A DNA stretch of 64,000 bases from a virus (IMGVR_UViG_3300026442_000101); one strand, 5' to 3'; positions 2,366 to 35,810 are shown, counted from the first letter of the stretch. Program-made: numbers and translations. Notes: generated by a model not told the origin, from the letters alone.

Positions 2366-4618
2366 TTAAGGAGTTACGGTGCCGCCGCCGGAGTCGTCGC
2401 CGCCACCGGTCCCACCAGTACCACCGGTACCGCCAGTGCCTGCGTCGGTGCCACCGTCGCCAGCTTCAGCTTCGGTGAGTTTGACACGAAAAGGCAGGGT
2501 CTGCTCCAGGAGCTCAGCAACGCCTTCCACGTTCACCTTGACGATGATCGGGCAGAAGTTGTAGTGCTGGAAGCGCGGCTGCACTACAGCCTCGTTCACT
2601 GGACGGCCATCACGGGTAACCGAGATGGTGGAGACCAGGGTCGGAGTCAGCAGCATTGCGCCGGAGCTCAGAGCGTCGATGCCTTCGCCATCGCGAACGA
2701 TGACCATGTACATGACGTCGCGCAGACGGGCGTCCACGTCCGATTCCAGCTGGTACTTCAGACCAGCACCCAGGGTGCGGCTGTCGCCCGAGATGGTCAT
2801 GAAGCGCTCGATCTGCTTCGAGGTCACCAGACCGAAGCGGAACGGTTGAGCAACTTCACCGCCGTCCATGTAGCGGCAGGCGTTCTCGTAGTTGGTCTTC
2901 TGCAGGATGTCGAAGGCCACCGAACGCAGGGTGTTGACCAGGACCGCAACGCCGTTCTCGACGTTGGCGACGGTTTCCTGCGACTGGGCAGTTTCCATCA
3001 GGTCGACGGTCAGTTCCTGAACGTACGGGTTGACGAGGTAACGGCCGATACCTTCGATAGGCAGGGCGTTGATCTCGAAGTCGCCAGCGGTCATCTCGCC
3101 GCGCAGGCCACCGGTCAGACGCATCAGACGCTCGTGGTAACCGATCAGGGTACCCACAGCTTCGTTGTTGATGTAGCTGGAGACCGCGAAGGTCAGCCAG
3201 TCCATCACGGTCTGGTCACGGTTTTCGCTCAGTGGGTACGGAACGAAGAACGGCGAACGCTGACGGGTCAGCAGACGCTCGGTCACGTTACGGACGTTGA
3301 GCATCAGGCCCAGGTGACGGTGGTTGGTGTTGGTCAGACGAGCGTCCGGCCACCAGCCGACTACCTTCAGTTGTGCCAGGCCATCAACGATGGTCTTGCC
3401 GACGCCGGTGCCCAGCGGGATGCGCTCGCCAGCTTCGTTCTCGATGTACATCACTTCCATGGAAGTGGTGGACACGTCGATGGTGCCGCGCTCAACATCG
3501 CTGTTGCCGTTCAGACGGGTCTTCAGACGGACGCTGTAGCCACCATCTTTGATGGTGGTGAACACCGCACCAGTCAGAGCTTCGCCCTTGTAGTTGGTGG
3601 TGTTCTTGTCGATCTTCAGGGTGGTCAGAACGAAGTTCAGCGACAGTTGACGGCCGCCTTGTTCTGGCAGCTTCACGAAGCGGCTGAATGGCAGACCCTT
3701 GGTGTCGAACACGATGGTGTCGGCGCCCAGGCCCAGGTACACGTCGGCAACGCCGATGTTACGGTCCAGTGCTTCGGTGTAGTCGGCTTGACCAACGCGG
3801 CTGATCGAGTCGGACTGACCCAGGCCGAAGATGTTGACGGTCTTGTTGACCAGCAGAGCCGAGGTCTTGACGGTACGACGACCGGAGATGTAGTCGAACG
3901 GCTCGACAACGGATTCGGCGACGAAGTTGTCTTTCGACACGTCGGCGTAGCCCGGGATCAGCTGGGTGCTGTTGTCGTGCAGTACGGTGTAGTCGATCGC
4001 CGAGTCCATGACGCGGCGCAGGCCGAAGTCGGATTCGGAACCATCCAGCTCGTGGCGCAGGGTGTTCTGCACGTAGAGGTTCGGGATGGTGATGTCGATA
4101 CCGCCTTGCTCAGGAGTCAGTGGAACGGTGCGGTACACCATTTCCATGGCCGGGCCCTGGCGCGCGATCTTGTAGTTCAGACCGATGGAGATCGGCAGGT
4201 GATCGATCAGCGACTGGTTGTCGAAGGATTCCTTCGAGTATTCGCTGTCGAATTCCATGCCGTCGGCGTGAGCGTAACGCACACCAGCGCCCAGCTGCTT
4301 GCTTTCGGTCGAGATCTGCAGGTTCAGCAGGTCGGAAGGACGCTGGGCGAACGAGGCGATGAACGAGGCTGCTGCCATACCGGCCGGGTTCTTGTAACCG
4401 GCTTCGGTGTTGCCTGGCTCGAGGACGCTTTTCAGGTTCTCGGCAACGCTCGACAGATCGACGCGGCTTTCGAAGGAACCTTCTTGCAGCCACTTGATGG
4501 CGTCAGCGCTCTCGGTGGAATAACCACCGGAGTGAATGTTTTCCTGGATCTGGGTAGCCAGCACGCCAGAGCCGGCGCCGAAGTTGCCGCCGGGCTTGTT
4601 GAGTTTGATGACACTCAT
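2366..4618 (-). CDS. Major capsid protein (phiKZ gp120-like)
   Basis: 750 aa with very strong codon bias; propeptide with S-x-E protease sites (YSTES, GSFES, YSKESFDNQ); adjacent to DnaB as in phiKZ; Gly/Thr-rich C-terminal tail. Confidence 0.9.
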   Translation of the reverse strand: MSVIKLNKPGGNFGAGSGVLATQIQENIHSGGYSTESADAIKWLQEGSFESRVDLSSVAENLKSVLEPGNTEAGYKNPAGMAAASFIASFAQRPSDLLNLQISTESKQLGAGVRYAHADGMEFDSEYSKESFDNQSLIDHLPISIGLNYKIARQGPAMEMVYRTVPLTPEQGGIDITIPNLYVQNTLRHELDGSESDFGLRRVMDSAIDYTVLHDNSTQLIPGYADVSKDNFVAESVVEPFDYISGRRTVKTSALLVNKTVNIFGLGQSDSISRVGQADYTEALDRNIGVADVYLGLGADTIVFDTKGLPFSRFVKLPEQGGRQLSLNFVLTTLKIDKNTTNYKGEALTGAVFTTIKDGGYSVRLKTRLNGNSDVERGTIDVSTTSMEVMYIENEAGERIPLGTGVGKTIVDGLAQLKVVGWWPDARLTNTNHRHLGLMLNVRNVTERLLTRQRSPFFVPYPLSENRDQTVMDWLTFAVSSYINNEAVGTLIGYHERLMRLTGGLRGEMTAGDFEINALPIEGIGRYLVNPYVQELTVDLMETAQSQETVANVENGVAVLVNTLRSVAFDILQKTNYENACRYMDGGEVAQPFRFGLVTSKQIERFMTISGDSRTLGAGLKYQLESDVDARLRDVMYMVIVRDGEGIDALSSGAMLLTPTLVSTISVTRDGRPVNEAVVQPRFQHYNFCPIIVKVNVEGVAELLEQTLPFRVKLTEAEAGDGGTDAGTGGTGGTGGTGGGDDSGGGTVTP

Positions 4619-6928: not shown

Positions 6929-6980
6929 AAAAAAAAAGAAAGCGAGGGAGCCGGGGCACGAAGCCCCGGTCCTTATGCTG
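6929..6980. terminator. Bidirectional terminator between convergent genes
   Basis: CCGGGGC-ACGAA-GCCCCGG; A-tract on the left, CCTTATGCTG on the right. Confidence 0.75.
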
Positions 6981-14149: not shown

Positions 14150-15097
14150 ATGCCTCTTTACAAAAAGCCCTCGAAAGACTTGGTGTACGACCTCATCAAC
14201 GAGGCGAACCCACAGCTTGAAATTCCAGCCTCGGCACTTAACGTGTCGCTCGGTGTGCCGGCAGCCATTGCCGGTACGTCCTGGCCGGCAAACAACACCA
14301 ACATCGTTCTATCCCCAGCGCCAGGCAGCGGCGACTTCATCGGTCGCCAGACCGTCAGCTACCGTCGCCTGGATCTGTCGGCCTTGTTCCGTGGCCAGAC
14401 CATCCTGATCAAGAAATTCAAGTCTACCGCCAGCTCCAGCTCGGGCACTTTGATGTACACCGTCTATCAGCTGTTGGCGGACATCAACTCTCGGTACGGG
14501 ATGAACCTGACCGAAGACGACGTCAACAATGCCAACATCCTACGGGGCAGTACCCTGGAAGACGGGCAGTACACCACTACCGTTACAGTGAGCACCAAAG
14601 CGACCTCGCTCGGTTATACCGGCAGCTTCTCTCTGAAGTGGCTGAACACCAAGCAGTCGTTGGAAGACATGATTACTGTCCGCACGCTGGGCGGTCGTCT
14701 CTTCCCGGGCGGTAACGACTTCAGTGGGGCGCACAAAGAAATTCTCGCCATGGCCGGTTACGGTATCGATGGCAGCGATGCACTTCGTCGAACCAGCTCG
14801 ACCTGGAACGGTACGGCTACGTCAGGAGTCGTCGCCGCAGCGCACCAAGTGTGGCTGTCCGCCATGCTGGATGATATCAACATCAAGTGCGGCACCAGCT
14901 ATAAATGCACCAACGGCGGATCGTACCTGACCACCAACGAGTTCTTCGGCATGAACTACACGATCGTAGTCCTGCCGCACGCCAACTACCCGGACGCGAA
15001 TACGACAGACTTCAACCGTCTGTTCATCATCACCGCGCCGGCGAACTGTCCATGGGCGGTTGGTGATCTGTACGTCCACGCCAACTACCCGTTCTAA
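14150..15097 (+). CDS. Virion structural paralog, two-domain
   Basis: YRRLDL; ends GDLYVHAN. Confidence 0.7.
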   Translation: MPLYKKPSKDLVYDLINEANPQLEIPASALNVSLGVPAAIAGTSWPANNTNIVLSPAPGSGDFIGRQTVSYRRLDLSALFRGQTILIKKFKSTASSSSGTLMYTVYQLLADINSRYGMNLTEDDVNNANILRGSTLEDGQYTTTVTVSTKATSLGYTGSFSLKWLNTKQSLEDMITVRTLGGRLFPGGNDFSGAHKEILAMAGYGIDGSDALRRTSSTWNGTATSGVVAAAHQVWLSAMLDDINIKCGTSYKCTNGGSYLTTNEFFGMNYTIVVLPHANYPDANTTDFNRLFIITAPANCPWAVGDLYVHANYPF

Positions 15098-15110
15098 GGA
15101 TAGGTGAACC

Positions 15111-15986
15111 ATGAGTTTCCTCACTCCGTCCAGACAGGACATTTTGAACTACGTCAACTTGGCGAACAGTACCTCGTACGTGTTGGCTGACGTGACGTTC
15201 GGTACGCCTGCGCCGACCGAAGGTAGTTGGCAGGGCAACGTTACCGATAAGAACACCGTCGTCCGCATCACTGCGGCTGCAGGCGGTACGTTCCAGGGCA
15301 GCGCGGTTGTCGTTTACGATCGCCTCAATCTGGCGAGCCTTGCGAACATCAAGGGTTTCAAGCCCCGCGTTACCGCGCCAGCGACCACGCACGATCTACT
15401 CGCGTCGATCAAGTACTTCACCGGCTTGAGCTTGTCGGTCAATGACATCGAAGCTACCCCAATGACCGACAATGGCAACGGCACCTATTCCGGTACCCTG
15501 ACTGCCAAAGCTGGATCGTGGGGATGGTACGGGAGTCTGCCGATCACTGTGCAGAAGGGCGGCGATCGCCTGAGCGACATCATTACCGATGTTACGCTCG
15601 ACGGCCTGAACTACCCGACGACGTCGGATCAGGAAATCTACGGGGCACTCTACATGTACCCGTACGACATGACCCCATACTTCAACACTCTGATCGATCT
15701 GGAAGACGGCGTAGCGCTTACCACCGAGCAGGTCAATGCCTTGGTGTTGGCGTTCAACGCGGTGGACGTTTCGTCCGGTAAGGGTCTGTGGACTGGTAGC
15801 GGTGCTGCCACTACCTGGACGCTGGGCGGTGCCAAGTGTGTGCGTAACGGCCTCAACGGCTCCGACCTGCCAACCAACCCTGGCTACAAATACGTGGCTG
15901 TGATCGAATTGCGTGCTGACGTCACCACTCCTCGCGGCGTGATGTACCTGCACTACAACGACTACACCGATCCTAACGCCGTTTAA
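15111..15986 (+). CDS. Virion structural paralog, two-domain
   Basis: YDRLNL; LDGLNYP; ends GVMYLHYN. Confidence 0.7.
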   Translation: MSFLTPSRQDILNYVNLANSTSYVLADVTFGTPAPTEGSWQGNVTDKNTVVRITAAAGGTFQGSAVVVYDRLNLASLANIKGFKPRVTAPATTHDLLASIKYFTGLSLSVNDIEATPMTDNGNGTYSGTLTAKAGSWGWYGSLPITVQKGGDRLSDIITDVTLDGLNYPTTSDQEIYGALYMYPYDMTPYFNTLIDLEDGVALTTEQVNALVLAFNAVDVSSGKGLWTGSGAATTWTLGGAKCVRNGLNGSDLPTNPGYKYVAVIELRADVTTPRGVMYLHYNDYTDPNAV

Positions 15987-16030
15987 CATCCAGCGGGTCC
16001 CTTCGGGGACCCTTCGCTAAGGAGCGAGTT

Positions 16031-17056
16031 ATGTTACGAGCTATGCTCGGCTTCGACCACTGTCCCCGGAACGTGGCCAACAGCTGGATTGCCAACTCCG
16101 GCTATTCGATCGAACGCTATTACCTGGACACTGGTGTCGGTCGTGACATCATCGTCGATAACAATGCCAAGTTGTCCATCTCTGCCGGCAACACTGCTGG
16201 CCGTACCTTGCACGTCCTGAACCTCAGTCAGTTCCTGGTCCCGAACGCAGCCAACAGCTTTGTATTCGGCTATCGGGCGAAGATGGAGACGGCCGGCGGT
16301 GCGGTTGGTGACTGGGCGCTATGGGTGGATTACCAGCGTGGTAACACTGGCGCAACCATCCTCAACCTCGGCCATATTTTCGGCACTGTTACGGCCGGTG
16401 TCGAGGCGTACATCGAGATCGTCATCCTGACGTCCGGCGCTGTAGAGTTCTGGAAGGACGGTGTGCTGGTCAGTTACAACGCTACTCTTTTGAGCGGCAT
16501 GATTGCTCAACTGAAAGCTGGTAACTTCTCCCTCGTCTTGCTGGCAGCTACCGCCAACACCCCTGCCGTGATTTCGTATCGCGACTTCTACTTGCTCGAT
16601 GACGTGCCTGGCGATGGTTTCACTTCCCGTCTTGGTTCCCGCGTCGTACGACCGGTCACTATTGACGCTGTTCCGGTGTCTACCGGCTGGAGCGCAACGA
16701 ACTCGCAGACTCCGCTGGAGATCCTCAGTGCACCGATCGATACCGCGAGTCCAGGTCTTCTGACCTCGTCCGTGGGCGCTCAGGCGCTTGAGGTGAGTTT
16801 GAAGTCGACCATCCCGGCCAACACCAAGGTGGAAGCGATTCAGCTCATGGCGGGCGCACTAGGCAGCACTGCGGCTTCTCGCCTAGGTTTCTCTCTGAAG
16901 GATGCTAACGGGGTTACTTCTCGTCGAGTAGTCACGCCAAGCACCACCCTCAAGTACGGTTTGCCGACCGGCTGCTGGACTCGTAGCCCGAGTGGACAAG
17001 AGTGGACCAACGCCACCATCGATAGCACGTCGCTGGTGATCACCCCTGATCTGTGA
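16031..17056 (+). CDS. Putative lectin-like (ConA/LamG-like beta-sandwich) tail protein
   Basis: Beta-rich; YIEI...G.VEFWKDG, YRDFY...RLG and WTxxxI motifs shared with 18959 and 20087. Confidence 0.55.
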   Translation: MLRAMLGFDHCPRNVANSWIANSGYSIERYYLDTGVGRDIIVDNNAKLSISAGNTAGRTLHVLNLSQFLVPNAANSFVFGYRAKMETAGGAVGDWALWVDYQRGNTGATILNLGHIFGTVTAGVEAYIEIVILTSGAVEFWKDGVLVSYNATLLSGMIAQLKAGNFSLVLLAATANTPAVISYRDFYLLDDVPGDGFTSRLGSRVVRPVTIDAVPVSTGWSATNSQTPLEILSAPIDTASPGLLTSSVGAQALEVSLKSTIPANTKVEAIQLMAGALGSTAASRLGFSLKDANGVTSRRVVTPSTTLKYGLPTGCWTRSPSGQEWTNATIDSTSLVITPDL

Positions 17057-17066
17057 GTAATCGGCT

Positions 17067-18095
17067 ATGACGATTTCCGTTCGTAACGCGCTGGGTTATG
17101 CATTAACCCGGCCAGCCGGGACCAACACTCTGCGTAACGTCATTGGTTACGCGCTGACGTTACCGGCAGCTGATGCAGTCGTGAAAGGCGGCGACGTAAA
17201 TCTGCTGGCTTCTCGCGAGCAGATGTTGTACCAGCTCGTTGTCAAGAGCAACCCCAAGATGGCCAGCTACGCCGCTACCGACATTGCCTTCAGTAGCGTC
17301 ACTGCCATGAACGCCACTATAGCTCCAAGCGGCGGCTCGTCGCTGATGCCGGATACTTCGGCGATCGTGAAGGCAGCAGGCTCCGGTAGTATGATCGGAC
17401 AGCAGACCGTCTATTACCGCCGCATCGACATCAGCAAACTGTTCAAGGGCAGGACGCTGACGTTGAAGGTGCCCTACGCCATGGGCACGACTGCGATTAC
17501 GAGGGCTCAGGCTCTAGACTTCGCTGCTCAGCAGTTTGGCATCAGGATCCCTACCGATGACGTTAACTTCACGTCTTGGTCGTTCCCTGCAAACAATAGC
17601 CTCAGTATAGTCGGAACGAGTCCTTGTTTCAAAGGGACGCTGATCATCAGGGTTGAGCGCGATAAACAGCTCCTGAGTTCGGTGGTTGGGGATCGAACCT
17701 TTGCCGGCCGGTCTTGGCCAGATGCGATGATCGACGTGGGCGATGGAACCAAGCCGCAAGGCGAACTGCTGTTGTACGACATCGATTACAGTTCCCAGAA
17801 ATCGGTATTGAACAACCTATCTTCTGGCACAGTTCCTGACGTCAACACCACCGGGAGTCTTGCTGCTGCGATGAACGCAGTACCTAACAACTCAGGGTAC
17901 GCGTTTGGTAATCAGCGGTGCGATACCCCGCCTGGGATCTTACTGGCGCGAGCGACACGGTATACGCTGCCTAACGCAGCAATTCCCGAGGCCAACTCGG
18001 CGCAATACAATCGCTGTGTTGTTATCGAAAACGTCGATTACCCGCAGTATCCGTCGTGGTGGGCGGGGAAGATCATCCTTCATTACAATGTCTAA
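17067..18095 (+). CDS. Virion structural paralog with 2 N-terminal RNxxxYAL repeats
   Basis: VRNALGYALT / LRNVIGYALT; YRRIDI; ends GKIILHYNV. Confidence 0.7.
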   Translation: MTISVRNALGYALTRPAGTNTLRNVIGYALTLPAADAVVKGGDVNLLASREQMLYQLVVKSNPKMASYAATDIAFSSVTAMNATIAPSGGSSLMPDTSAIVKAAGSGSMIGQQTVYYRRIDISKLFKGRTLTLKVPYAMGTTAITRAQALDFAAQQFGIRIPTDDVNFTSWSFPANNSLSIVGTSPCFKGTLIIRVERDKQLLSSVVGDRTFAGRSWPDAMIDVGDGTKPQGELLLYDIDYSSQKSVLNNLSSGTVPDVNTTGSLAAAMNAVPNNSGYAFGNQRCDTPPGILLARATRYTLPNAAIPEANSAQYNRCVVIENVDYPQYPSWWAGKIILHYNV

Positions 18096-21994: not shown

Positions 21995-22519
21995 TTAACC
22001 CTCGGCGTCGAAGCCGTCCAGGTCAGTCACGGAAGCTGCTTCGTTCAGAGGAACGTCAGCGTCCGGTACGGACAGAACAGCAGCGAAGGTGCCGGTGTAC
22101 AGCAGGCTGCCAGCGTCGGCAACAACATCGGCCGAACCGTTGGTGTCTTCGTCAACCGGGCGAACGATGTTCGACAGGCTGATTTCCGATTCGATCAGAC
22201 CCAGCGCGGTAGCGACCTTGGTCAGGACCTGTGCGTCGGTATCGCCTTCAGCGATGACCACAGGGATGGCCTTGGCAGTAGCGATACCTTCGCCAGCAGT
22301 CAGCGCCCGACGGGTGTAGCTGAAGGTCTGGGTGCCGCTGAAGCCTTGGTTGTCGACAGCGGTGTAGGTGATGCTGGTGTTGCGACCACCAGTGCCAGCT
22401 TCGCTGACAACCGAGCCAGGAGTGATCTGGGCGGCGGTAGCGTTCAGGCTGGGGTTAGCAGCGTTGATCAGTGCCAGGACGTTAGCCGCGGCAGTGATGG
22501 CGATATTGACTTTAGCCAT
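21995..22519 (-). CDS. Virion structural paralog (YxRR domain), probably abundant
   Basis: GRNTSI...FSYTRRAL; ends VTDLDGFDAEG; codon bias like the capsid gene. Confidence 0.7.
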   Translation of the reverse strand: MAKVNIAITAAANVLALINAANPSLNATAAQITPGSVVSEAGTGGRNTSITYTAVDNQGFSGTQTFSYTRRALTAGEGIATAKAIPVVIAEGDTDAQVLTKVATALGLIESEISLSNIVRPVDEDTNGSADVVADAGSLLYTGTFAAVLSVPDADVPLNEAASVTDLDGFDAEG

Positions 22520-22571
22520 GATGTTGAACCCTTCATGTTTGCGGTTAGGGACAGTCCTAACATAGCATCAG

Positions 22572-22615
22572 CGGCATAAGCCCCTACACCAGAGCCGTGA
22601 AGCCTGGTGTAGGGG
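22572..22615 (-). terminator. Hairpin plus TATGCCG ending the 620-nt non-coding unit
   Basis: CCCCTACACCAG...CTGGTGTAGGGG, then CTTATGCCG. Confidence 0.7.
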
Positions 22616-22619
22616 AATG

Positions 22620-23240
22620 CTCAAGGATCAGAAAGGCAACTACCCGACAATGGATACCTGGGGAGGAGATGCGCGGCTGCTACGCGCTCCATCGTCGTTA
22701 GGTCGACCAAGACTTTTGTCGCCCTTATCTCCGTTTCAGTGAGGTCAATACCCACCCATCAGATCGCCTATAATAGACGTGCACATCCATTACAAGCATC
22801 TGAAGGCTGCGTACTACGAGCCGCGTTGGTCGGCAGTCCATTTCCGTCTTTTACGATCATCGCTTCAGCCCACTGGACTGCGGGTCGAACCCGGAGCAGC
22901 GGTCCACTAGACCGACGGAGCGTGACGGCGTACCACGATTAACTGCCAAGCGCGAACATCGTGCAACAACTTGAGTACTCCTTGAAGCGTTGGCGTGCTT
23001 AACGAGTCCCCCGTACCCTTCGAAACTCTAATCACCGGCCAGGGGTCAGAGAGTCTCTCATATACTCCAATAGTCCAGGGTGAGGTTATTGGAGATGCCC
23101 TAAGGCATATCAAACACAAGAGTGTTTCACGCCATGTTTAACGTCTTGCGATCATCAGTGATAAGACGATCAGAGGACCAGCTGCCTTAGACAGTCAGGC
23201 GGCCAGCGAGGGAGTCCGGGATGCGCGGCTGGTCCTCTGA
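22620..23240 (-). ncRNA. Putative ~620-nt structured non-coding RNA
   Basis: No credible ORF; many hairpins; 13-bp 5' stem; 12-nt terminal direct repeat; upstream GTATTATAT element; downstream terminator. Confidence 0.6.
23108..23163 (-). ncRNA. Putative type I hammerhead ribozyme
   Basis: UAUCA-CUGAUGA-(23-nt stem/loop II)-GAAA-CAC-UCUU-GUG-UU^UGAUA; all invariant core nucleotides are present, and stems I and III are Watson-Crick. Confidence 0.65.
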
Positions 23241-23263
23241 TATAATACTTTCATGTTTCGTAA

Positions 23264-23971
23264 TTATTCACGGATAGTTCGCACCATGTACTCGTTGGTC
23301 ATCTTGATGACGTTACCTAACTTAGTAGCCGCGTTGATGCGCTGGCAGAACTCTTTGAGGATCGGTCCACCGGACTGGGATTTACAGTTGAAGGTCAGTT
23401 GGATCATGCCGGCGAAGATACGGACTTCGATAAGCGGCACCGGCAGCAGGGTGGCTTGGATCACCTTGCCGTCGATATCGGTACGATATAGCACGTAATG
23501 GTAATCGAGATCACGAGTGCTATCAAGTACGACTTGGTTGATGCCGTAGAGGGCTTGCCGTATCGCATCACGATCGGCAGTGTCGGTGTCGTTAAACACT
23601 ACGCTGATACTTCCGCCAGTATCCTCACCACCAACCGAGACTACCTGCATACGCAGCAGGGCGTTAATGACATCACGATTGGCTTTGAGGTGATCCATGC
23701 TCGAGTCGAACTGTAACGCAGTGATCGCTAAGCTCGTGTCCACGCGGCGTGGTACGTTCTGTTCCTTGATGACGATCTCGACTTTACTGCCATCAAGGCT
23801 AGTCCAGTTACGGATATCCTCGCCAACGAGGTTGCGCTCTGCACGCAGATCCTCGCTGGTGATCTTAACCTCGTGACCGTACTCCTGCATCAGAGCACGC
23901 TCGATGATTGCCATGACGTGACTTTTACCGACGCCGGTCGAACCTTTAACGATGACTTCGAGCTTTTCCAT
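23264..23971 (-). CDS. Hypothetical protein with N-terminal P-loop-like motif
   Basis: VIVKGSTGVGKS at the N-terminus; no clear Walker B. Confidence 0.55.
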   Translation of the reverse strand: MEKLEVIVKGSTGVGKSHVMAIIERALMQEYGHEVKITSEDLRAERNLVGEDIRNWTSLDGSKVEIVIKEQNVPRRVDTSLAITALQFDSSMDHLKANRDVINALLRMQVVSVGGEDTGGSISVVFNDTDTADRDAIRQALYGINQVVLDSTRDLDYHYVLYRTDIDGKVIQATLLPVPLIEVRIFAGMIQLTFNCKSQSGGPILKEFCQRINAATKLGNVIKMTNEYMVRTIRE

Positions 23972-24341: not shown

Positions 24342-24419
24342 GACGACCTCCGTTTATTCATTACATAGCCGTCATTGTTAAATGTATACGAACGGCATAA
24401 AGACCCGGCCGAAGCCGGG

Positions 24420-24665
24420 CATCTTGATCTTCATGTTGCCCGTCGTTGTACATGCGCATCCGGCTAGAGGCAGCGAACCGCCCGATAGGTTTCAGCTACA
24501 AGCATTGATAGGCGCGTTCAGCCTCAGGAAGAACGCTAAGGGGTGGCGTTGCCGCCATTGGGGTTCCATTCCTCAGGGAGCTGGACGAAACGGACGTCCT
24601 TACTGTGAGTTCAAGATCTAAATTGTGAAAGAGCTCAGAGAACAACTTGTGAGGGCATTCTCTAC
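24420..24665 (-). ncRNA. Putative ~245-nt structured RNA
   Basis: Closing stem ATCTTGA/TCAAGAT; GGCG-GCAA-CGCC and GGCGG-TTCG-CTGCC tetraloop hairpins; TATG at the 5' end; hairpin+TTTATGCCG at the 3' end. Confidence 0.45.
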
Positions 24666-24748
24666 ATAGTATATTGACATCATCCGTAAGTATTCACGCA
24701 AAAAAAAAAGAAAGTAGCACAGCCCGGCTTTCGCCGGGCTGTATGCTG

Positions 24749-25773: not shown

Positions 25774-25834
25774 AAAAATAGTTAAATGCGGCATATACCC
25801 CACCACCGGCGGAGCGACCGGTGGTGGGGATCTA

Positions 25835-26061
25835 TGTTGGTTCACACTTGGGGCTGAGTGGTCACCCCACAGAGTTCGGCTTGTCCTCACGACGCTGAAC
25901 TCTGCAGGCTGTGCACTCTAGGCACTAGCTAGACTCCGACGGACCCGCGACCGTCGTAGCCTAAGGTCGGAGAGGACTCCCGACCACGGTGATCCAACGA
26001 TGGGAGTGTGCACACCGTTGGATTAAACTGAATCCATTCGCCCGAAATAATTCAGTCTAAC
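25835..26061 (-). ncRNA. Putative ~230-nt highly structured RNA
   Basis: Six consecutive hairpins whose G-U pairs work only on the minus strand; GTATTATATG directly 5'; hairpin+TATATGCCG 3' (25789-25829). Confidence 0.65.
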
Positions 26062-28239: not shown

Positions 28240-28285
28240 TATAAAGCTCCGGCATAAGTGGGGCGGTTTCCCGCCCCTAATTAGA

Positions 28286-34870: not shown

Positions 34871-34971
34871 GGTAGTCTCCTTGTAGTTATAGCACAGGGC
34901 GGTTTTGTAACAAAAAAAAAGAGGGCGGTTTCCCGCCCCTAAAGGGGATGTCCAGTCTGACCTTTCGGTCG

Positions 34972-35226
34972 CTAAAGTACTTGGCCTTGACGGCCGAGTT
35001 CATTCACTACGAATTTGTAGATGTCACCCTGCATACCCAACAGCTCCTTACGGCGCATGTCGATGTAGTCGACTTGAACGTGCGGACTCGTGCCGAAACG
35101 TTTCAACGCATCGGCTTTATAGCTCAACTCCTGTGCCTCTTCGAGCAAGTTGTTGAAGAACTCGTCCGGGTCCTCGTCATCTACGTCACCTCGGTAGTGA
35201 CTTATCTTGAATAACTCTGCCATCAC
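34972..35226 (-). CDS. Hypothetical protein
   Basis: 84 aa; followed by a hairpin and T-tract. Confidence 0.55.
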   Translation of the reverse strand: MMAELFKISHYRGDVDDEDPDEFFNNLLEEAQELSYKADALKRFGTSPHVQVDYIDMRRKELLGMQGDIYKFVVNELGRQGQVL

Positions 35227-35234
35227 ATTTTCCT

Positions 35235-35414
35235 TTATGCTGCCAAGGCGGCTTCGGCCTCATCGATCTTTGCAGACCAGTGGTTAGCTTCGTCAGAGTT
35301 AACGCCGTGGTTACGCATGGCGCGTTCGAACAGCTTCTCAGCCATCCGCTTTTCCCTCAGGAGGGAATCGGTGACTTCGTTGCTGCGGGTGTTACCAAAC
35401 AGGAAATTAAGCAT
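35235..35414 (-). CDS. Hypothetical protein
   Basis: MLNFLFGNTRS...; GGAGG RBS; promoter motif at 35485. Confidence 0.55.
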   Translation of the reverse strand: MLNFLFGNTRSNEVTDSLLREKRMAEKLFERAMRNHGVNSDEANHWSAKIDEAEAALAA

Positions 35415-35484
35415 CGCGATTACCTCCTTCGGTGTTATGCGATTGGTGTTCCTTGAGCCGTCATGTTGCACAACTCACGCTGAG

Positions 35485-35496
35485 TATGTATGACTG
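35485..35496 (-). promoter_or_regulatory. Promoter-like motif CAGTCATACATA
   Basis: Identical 12-mer to the copy at 9755. Confidence 0.6.
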
Positions 35497-35516
35497 AAAT
35501 TCTTTTTAATGCGATT

Positions 35517-35810
35517 TCAGGCACGCTGCCGATGCTGGCAAGTATTGAGATGGACTAACTGTTTCTCGAGCAGTATATCGATGGAGTCAGAAATCTCGCG
35601 CATCTTACCCATGACCTCGCGGATACGATCGGTAATCTCGGTCGTATCTTCGTGGCGCATTTGCATTTCCTGACGTTCAGTCGACAACTGCCCGTATTTA
35701 GCATCCAGAGCCAAACGACGACTACGCAGGTCCGCTACGGCACGGCCGTAGTCTACGCTTTGTTGTACGAAGTCTTCGTCGTAGCTGACTACCTGGTTAA
35801 CATGTGACAT
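35517..35810 (-). CDS. Hypothetical coiled-coil protein
   Basis: 97-aa ORF. Confidence 0.55.
   Translation of the reverse strand: MSHVNQVVSYDEDFVQQSVDYGRAVADLRSRRLALDAKYGQLSTERQEMQMRHEDTTEITDRIREVMGKMREISDSIDILLEKQLVHLNTCQHRQRA

Follow-up and report, generated by a model that had tools for sequence, protein, structure and literature searches.

Hammerhead ribozymes are known in phages, where their role is still unclear, and to our knowledge the large structured phage RNAs GOLLD and ROOL are still without function. The locus described here combines a predicted ribozyme with a large, covarying, modular RNA whose 5' end it appears to set. The candidate ribozyme has the same core, three stems and type I order as the type I hammerheads of phages and bacteria (Perreault et al. 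2011, PMC3088659; RF00163), and it resembles them further in the pseudoknot that ties loop II to the flank of stem I, in U10.1-U11.1, which is found in some of their active examples, and in its intergenic location in a phage. It differs from them in being unscored by the Rfam models, its activity being predicted from sequence, in a long (15 nt) and invariant loop II with stems of 5, 3 and 4 bp, and in forming the front module of an RNA gene of ~665 nt instead of flanking protein genes. GOLLD and ROOL are likewise several hundred nucleotides long, phage-borne and patchy in distribution, with many helices and a pseudoknot; the present RNA, in contrast, has no match to their Rfam models (E <= 10) and no adjacent tRNA genes, carries a predicted ribozyme leader, and belongs so far to one clade of phiKZ-like soil phages.

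Two other groups of RNAs are close to this one. The ncRNAs derived from 5'UTRs in phiKZ-like phages (Putzeys et al. 2024, PMC10914365; 201phi2-1 sRNA005, PMC11512511) likewise precede a virion gene that is encoded on their strand, and a terminator bounds them. Unlike the present RNA, they are shorter than 250 nt and carry no ribozyme, and the conserved one precedes a gp182 homologue, whereas the present RNA precedes a different gene, has a promoter-like element after its terminator and is dispensable for the locus. Retrozymes and viroid-like circular RNAs share with it a hammerhead motif and a short direct repeat, but retrozymes have two type III hammerheads placed in flanking direct repeats, while here there is a single type I motif, a 3' end made by a terminator, an unconserved repeat, and a template in phage DNA. 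In the literature searched, no hammerhead ribozyme was reported from a jumbo phage, and the texts holding both terms concern CRISPR RNA targeting. Related phages supply natural controls, with either the same core RNA without the ribozyme or an empty slot, so that the purpose of ribozyme processing is directly testable.

A conserved and structured non-coding RNA gene

The window, that is the whole 64-kb stretch of DNA analysed, comes from a phiKZ-like jumbo phage: it encodes a PhiKZ_MCP capsid gene (2366-4618) and a divergent DnaB-like helicase, and the closest cultured capsid protein is that of Pseudomonas phage pPa_SNUABM_DT01 (38.7% identity). The minus strand from 23248 to 22572 is a non-coding RNA gene of this uncultured soil phage. 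On its 5' side lies a gene of 235 aa (23264-23971, minus strand), whose product is conserved among relatives over the first ~56 residues only and found no relatives when compared with phage records and IMG/VR. On its 3' side lies the DUF7941 virion gene (174 aa, 21995-22519, minus strand). An initial sequence-only reading had taken this region for the largest ORF-free gap of the window, and 22580-23252 (673 nt) is indeed the longest stretch without an ORF of at least 75 aa, although 34871-35788 exceeds it when the cut-off is raised to 100 aa. The limits first proposed were 22620-23248; the RNA reaches ~22575, about 45 nt further in the 3' direction. The stems and motifs then named were all found on the minus strand, including the hairpin and TATGCCG proposed as a terminator at the 3' end, which correspond to a 12-bp hairpin. 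The elements of the RNA are, from 5' to 3':

23248-23240, minus strand: AT-rich box GTATTATAT, immediately before the first stem; putative promoter
23240-23169, minus strand: leader hairpin P1, with a closing stem of 13-14 bp and a branched inner part; holds the 5' copy of a 12-mer repeat
23168-23108, minus strand: type I hammerhead candidate, predicted cut 23113/23112
23094-23065, minus strand: hairpin B, stem CTCCAATA/TATTGGAG (23094-23087 with 23072-23065), conserved loop ACCUCACCCUGGAC
23057-22972, minus strand: hairpin D, junction AAGGGUA and hairpin E, with conserved sequence blocks
22948-22831, minus strand: central variable domain, closed by UGGCAGUU (22948-22941) with GACUGCCG (22838-22831)
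22816-22748, minus strand: long hairpin C, ~30 bp, with conserved 1x1 mismatches
22747-22616, minus strand: 3' extension, with motif CUUGGUCGACC (22711-22701), the 12-mer hairpin and conserved block CUGAUCCUUGAGCAUU
22615-22572, minus strand: terminator, a 12-bp G+C-rich hairpin (22615-22604 with 22592-22581) and tail CUUAUGCCG

Orthologous loci were collected by using the downstream protein as anchor, and ~25 distinct ones were fetched. The same RNA was found between the same genes in three metagenomic relatives, L022 (88% identity over 725 nt), L014 (76%) and L028 (~62%), so that the window type of RNA is known in four sequences. Substitutions in the RNA are spread evenly over the codon positions, whereas about half of those in adjacent coding sequences fall at the third position, and the indels of the alignment (1, 2, 4, 5, 7, 11 and 20 nt) are not confined to multiples of three; the region is therefore not coding. 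Among the homologs, no short ORF kept in length or sequence was seen when the alignment was read by eye. Gene decay, an intron or neutral spacer DNA could account for a slot whose content differs between phages, but the gap is conserved as well as or better than the neighbouring coding sequences (88% against 82% identity in the comparison with L022), tblastn with the upstream proteins of relatives matched nothing in it, no gene is split, and strong covariation contradicts such an origin, which we find scarcely credible.

The minus strand folds with a minimum free energy of -275.7 kcal/mol, against -239.3 ± 8.2 kcal/mol for shuffled sequences (z = -4.5). Covariation was analysed over 13 curated local helices on the alignment of the four sequences (window, L022, L014, L028). 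In these helices 91.4% of the cells are paired, against 36-49% after sliding the 3' partners by 1-3 columns, and 24 pairs are changed on both sides, against 9.5 ± 2.2 in shuffles, a value of 24 being reached by none of 500. G-U cells number 46 and A-C cells 9, indicating that the minus strand is the RNA strand. Covariation shows the fold of the RNA body, for which hairpin B, the closing helices of the central domain, hairpin C and the terminator are the best-supported elements. The search for homologs and covariation that had been suggested as a check thus gave three homologs and a signal that no shuffle equalled.

An Rfam search, suggested in the same way, returned no family: nothing reached the gathering score in the 64-kb window and 17 loci, and nothing was found at E <= 10 on 1 kb (22400-23400) or on an 81-nt slice. 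ARAGORN found no tRNA or tmRNA, and blastn against 50,697 phage records gave no match. The view that the RNA is not a tmRNA, RNase P or group I/II intron holds with these empty Rfam and ARAGORN results. GOLLD, ROOL, OLE, HEARO, raiA, RNase P, tmRNA and 6S were all rejected on the basis of no Rfam match at E <= 10 over 22400-23400. A group I/II intron was set aside with no match to an Rfam intron model and with flanking ORFs that are complete, come from different families and are not fused in relatives without the RNA. A tRNA-like reading of the TTCGA hairpin was abandoned too, ARAGORN being empty and the hairpin being absent from L014 and L028. The undescribed structured phage ncRNA initially proposed is real and conserved, without an Rfam family or a description in the literature searched; it is a genuine, structured, uncatalogued and modular non-coding RNA gene.

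The individual elements are conserved in different ways. The AT-rich box keeps TATTATA in L022 and L028 and reads TAATATA in L014, with diverging flanks. The exact 9-mer GTATTATAT occurs twice in the window (23248-23240 and 26070-26062, both on the minus strand), each time before an ORF-free structured region. In P1, the 13-bp stem formed by TCAGAGGACCAGC (23240-23228) and GCTGGTCCTCTGA (23182-23170) is paired in 98% of its cells, with both sides changed in 2 pairs (helix 1), and L028 keeps the closing stem with a different inner part. In hairpin B, 5 of the 8 stem pairs are changed on both sides over eight sequences of two RNA types. Its loop has the potential to form a pseudoknot, ACCCU (23081-23077) with AGGGU of the junction (23019-23015); the two strands are ACCCU/AGGGU in the window, L022 and L028, AUCCU/AGGGU with a U-G pair in L014, and AUCCU/AGGAU in L001 and L006. 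With its one covarying position, this loop-junction pairing is suggestive only.

Hairpin D is formed by GAGACUCU (23057-23050) and AGAGUUUC (23029-23022), and its loop holds the conserved UGGCCGGUG. In the alignment, the conserved blocks UGGC.GG and AAGGGUACGG stand out in the D/E region; helix 6 is paired in 90% of its cells and shows changes on both sides in 2 pairs. Helices 7 and 8 of the central domain pair in 100% of their cells, and 3 of their pairs differ on both sides; in L014 and L028 the interior of this domain is replaced, and the TGGAC..CGGG-TTCGA-CCCG..TCCA hairpin within it is not kept. Hairpin C, whose mismatches include a G-G in CAGCC/GGGUG, has 8 pairs changed on both sides in the four-sequence alignment and 10 of 22 over seven sequences of two RNA types, and with its model, R2, the sense strand reaches 84 bits and the antisense strand 35 bits. 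Within the 3' extension, the hairpin GGAGCGCG..CGCGCAUCUCC (stem GGAGCGCG/CGCGC..CTCC) carries the 3' copy of the 12-mer, and CTTGGTCGNCC occurs as a single sense-strand copy in the orthologous gap of each of nine loci and nowhere else in them. Much of this extension is missing from L028, including the motif and the 12-mer hairpin. The stem of the terminator differs in sequence and keeps its pairing in all three homologs, and is followed in the window by CTTATGCCG (22580-22572).

The window contains 13 copies of TTATGCYG where 2.8 are expected, and they are located at operon ends. Such sites, for example 2298-2315, 6973-6980, 22572-22579, 24393-24400 and 28250-28257, stand after G+C-rich hairpins, and a second TATG follows within ~20 nt, before the next gene. 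The combination of TTATGCYG and TATG looks like a terminator and late-promoter punctuation mark of this phage.

The predicted hammerhead ribozyme

When the window is aligned with L028, the blocks UCACUGAUGAUCGC and GGCGUGAAACA stand out as invariant within diverged sequence, and they contain a complete hammerhead core. Its parts are:

23168-23164 with 23146-23142, minus strand: pseudoknot strands, CGUCU with AGACG in loop II
23163-23159 with 23112-23108, minus strand: stem I, 5 bp, UAUCA with UGAUA
23158-23152, minus strand: core CUGAUGA, invariant in the window, L022, L014 and L028
23150-23148 with 23132-23130, minus strand: stem II, 3 bp, CGC with GCG
23128-23125, minus strand: GAAA, of which GAA (23128-23126) is invariant in the four sequences
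23125-23122 with 23117-23114, minus strand: stem III, 4 bp, ACAC with GUGU

The A15.1-U16.1 pair is present (A 23125 with U 23114), and H17 is never G, being A in L028 and U (23113) in the other three sequences. Position 10.1-11.1 is a U-U mismatch (23151/23129) and not a pair in all four sequences. A G-C pair is usual at this place, but U-U has been reported in natural hammerheads and cleaves better than other mispairs (PMC3088659); since it is found in active natural hammerheads, it does not exclude membership of the class. A pseudoknot between stems I and II has been described in natural hammerheads, including phage ones, and is needed for fast cleavage (PMC3088659).

A type I descriptor of our own (core, stem II, GAAA, A15.1-U16.1, non-G H17 and stem I) gave one match in the 64-kb window, one in each of the three homologs and nowhere else in the loci, for a chance expectation of 0.03 matches per 64 kb over both strands of Markov-shuffled windows. 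The ribozyme that the sequence-only reading had associated with this RNA has a counterpart in the hammerhead-type motif at 23168-23108. A model built from the three close sequences (R1) recovered L028 over its full length (35 bits, E = 1e-6); stem III of L028 holds an extra 24 nt. In L028, stem I goes from UAUCA/UGAUA to UUUCA/UGAAU, with one pair changed on both sides, and the pseudoknot from CGUCU/AGACG to CGCCC/GGGCG, with two. The covariation score of the hammerhead was reached by 61 of 500 shuffles over three distinct sequences, a weak statistic because two independent lineages exist, the window group and L028.

These data have to be weighed against a structured ncRNA in which the hammerhead is an inactive or coincidental look-alike. 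One primary transcript of ~665 nt would then arise from its own promoter, as the conserved AT-rich box directly before P1 might suggest, and CUGAUGA and GAAA would be a protein site or a tertiary motif. The Rfam hammerhead models are silent (no score at gathering or at E <= 10 for the window, the 1 kb and the 81-nt slice), but the odd features of the motif are published natural variants, and the full motif occurs in the correct topology once where 0.03 occurrences are expected. Alternative folds are much more stable, the isolated domain reaching -20.7 kcal/mol against about -5 plus -4.5 kcal/mol for hammerhead and pseudoknot; in L028 one competing helix is disrupted with no compensating change, while the pseudoknot persists through its two double changes. 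Covariation is lacking in stem II and in parts of stems I and III, where the sequence does not vary, although in L028 stems I and III are formed from different nucleotides. One metatranscriptome contig crosses the predicted cut site, but spanning contigs cannot show cleavage. On balance we consider a look-alike unlikely, while granting it a real chance, and the presence of a type I hammerhead, non-canonical and predicted from its motif, quite likely.

Beyond these loci, a hammerhead pattern scan of IMG/VR returned a single match, unrelated and inside an ORF. The same kind of scan over 185,579 prokaryote genomes gave four matches in Planctomycetes, which were discarded as the antisense of a prepilin N-terminal motif. 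FLC9 was searched together with four related records of IMG/VR, of which three are 100% complete and one is 95% complete: R1 matched none of them, and RF00163 gave one sub-threshold match (13.8 bits, E 0.45, in G001).

The slot upstream of the DUF7941 gene in related phages

The content of the slot 5' of the DUF7941 gene varies among the loci:

L001, L006, L034, L041: RNA type of ~680 nt
L009: RNA type of 316 nt
L008 (2706-3000), L010, L016, L018: RNA type of 290 nt; ncRNA candidate (L008 type) of about 170-200 nt
L015 (2332-3000): L008-type RNA with a structured insertion of ~400 nt
L002: gap of 488 nt
RNA-less loci: a gene of 332-341 aa abuts the terminator

The core of the window RNA recurs without a hammerhead in the L009 and L001 types: hairpin B, with a loop whose consensus over the types is ACCU.A.CCUG.A, is found there together with the junction AAAGGRUA and hairpin C. 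All RNAs of these two types were found with R2, including that of L041 (54 bits), which lies outside the training set; on five records R2 gave sub-threshold matches only. The L009 and L001 types are without the ~200-nt central domain, which the window type adds together with the leader and hammerhead and the ~130-nt 3' extension. A motif of this extension, CUUGGUCGNCC, is common to the L008 and L002 types. The L008-type candidate itself starts with TATG, is closed by a stem of 12 bp and has one further hairpin before its terminator.

The types also differ in what precedes them. The RNAs of L001 and L015 possess their own upstream terminator and a promoter-like element and have no hammerhead, whereas the window type has the hammerhead and no terminator after the upstream gene. 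This difference suggests that the ribozyme would be the way in which the window lineage sets the 5' end of the body. It also makes the stand-alone status of the RNA uncertain, as nothing terminates transcription between it and the upstream gene: the RNA may equally be excised by the ribozyme from the transcript of that gene.

The RNA ends in a terminator directly 5' of a virion gene of its own strand. This arrangement recalls the terminated leaders that are common in such phages (17 in phiKZ and 11 in 201phi2-1; PMC10914365, PMC11512511), and the RNA could be taken for a cis-acting leader or attenuator of the DUF7941 gene, a very long version of the 5'UTR-derived ncRNAs that arise in those two phages by premature termination. 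In all loci, however, a conserved G(N)TATG promoter-like element separates the terminator from the gene, and relatives with 69-76% identical DUF7941 proteins do without the RNA and keep the terminator-promoter junction; moreover, the known conserved sRNA precedes a different gene, phiKZ gp182, in a gap of 55 nt. L003, which has no RNA, shows the same terminator, TATGCCG and TATG promoter before the downstream gene. Since RNA-less loci retain this terminator/TATG junction, the downstream gene appears independent of the RNA, and we hold the leader explanation to be quite improbable. As judged from the loci compared, the RNA gene reads as a modular and accessory one.

Where relatives have a protein in this slot in place of the RNA (L024 1414-2412, L027 232-1248, L043 1691-2464), that protein has the precomputed Pfam label Acb2_Tad1_hairpin, the name of an anti-CBASS / anti-Thoeris sponge fold. 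A Pfam scan of the L024 and L043 proteins, and of the homologous ones of L003 and L031, returned no family at E <= 0.01 and did not confirm the label; an anti-defence argument built on it was dropped.

Processing model, direct repeats and metatranscriptome contigs

Taken together, the best explanation is, in our opinion, a covarying ncRNA gene led by a hammerhead, in which the ribozyme trims the leader and the body ends at the terminator; we consider it probable, with moderate confidence. Transcription would start from the AT-rich box at 23248-23240 or read through from the upstream gene, which has no terminator. The strong leader hairpin (23240-23169) would form first, followed by the type I hammerhead (23168-23108), stabilised by the pseudoknot of the stem I flank with loop II. 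From the motif, the cut is expected between U23113 and U23112. The 5' product would be a leader of 127 nt, or an upstream mRNA ending in the P1 hairpin, with a 2',3'-cyclic phosphate, and the 3' product a body of ~535 nt with a 5'-OH, whose 3' end would be made by the hairpin terminator at ~22575. The body would successively comprise hairpin B with its loop-junction pseudoknot, D, E, the variable central domain, C and the 3' extension.

Our best guess is that the body is a trans-acting RNA, bound by protein via its conserved loops and the mismatched helix. A broader proposal is that ornate RNAs processed by hammerheads make up a widespread class of accessory genes that has gone unrecognised in the phiKZ-like jumbo phages, with a pseudoknotted hairpin and a mismatched helix of the 5'-OH RNA binding a phage or host protein. 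Under this proposal the RNA might play a role in virion assembly or in host conflict, as a decoy or sponge, since its gene lies within the fibre/baseplate array and is exchanged for protein genes from one relative to another. The proposal is a speculative one that we think rather unlikely to hold.

The 12-mer CAGCCGCGCATC is present on the minus strand at 23231-23220 and 22679-22668, and an exact 12-mer repeat within 620 nt is expected ~0.01 times by our estimate. These two copies were at first interpreted as terminal direct repeats which, with a ribozyme, could signal a retrozyme-like or otherwise circularising RNA. The exact copies are there, but they are not conserved and would not be terminal on the mature RNA: the repeat is exact in the window phage only, its 3' copy differing in L022 and L014 and both copies missing in L028, and the predicted cut would remove the 5' copy together with the leader. 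A circle would draw on the 12-mer near both ends and on the one hammerhead, yet this hammerhead is single and of type I, a second one being found neither by the descriptor nor by R1, and no ribozyme family by Rfam in the window. In addition, the intrinsic terminator leaves a 3'-OH, which is not ligatable by RtcB-type chemistry, and no back-joined contig or other joint was seen in the contigs of the four metatranscriptome runs examined. The circularising RNA was accordingly given up as extremely improbable, and the hammerhead-led gene ending at its terminator is retained.

The full stretch is contained in 24 soil metatranscriptome runs. In the four runs examined, the surrounding phage genome is also present, in contigs of up to tens of kb, so that they indicate neither expression specific to the RNA nor cleavage. 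The RNA contig that runs across the predicted cut was assembled, and assembled contigs cannot show ends. In run X6, RNA contigs end with the Illumina adapter at 18078, 20108, 21039, 25802, 26092 and 26542, none of which is an end of the 23248-22572 RNA; these sites suggest abundant discrete RNA ends. In run X1, a 91-nt piece (22985-22895) is found in short contigs at a depth of ~15,000-18,000, against ~146 for the flanking 40-kb contigs, and one contig joins 22985-22952 (minus sense) to non-window sequence beginning AAAAATGTCTGATAACG. The depth over 22895-22985 could come from a stable RNA fragment or from a piece common to another abundant molecule.

Two further ORF-free regions of the window were noted. 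The one at 24342-24748 (minus strand) is 94% identical in L022 and 89% in L014, with parts recognisable in L028, L003/L004, L031 and L032, and has no similarity to the 23248-22572 RNA. The other, structured, extends over ~25797-26061 behind the identical GTATTATAT at 26070-26062 (minus strand). Its hairpin at 25855-25927 (minus strand) aligns to the full-length hairpin C model with 20.7 bits (E = 1e-5 in 1.85 kb, 0.0015 in 228 kb) and has in common with hairpin C a CAGCCU..CAG / CUG..GGGUG helix with the G-G mismatch. The two RNAs, 23248-22572 and ~25797-26061, may have a common partner.
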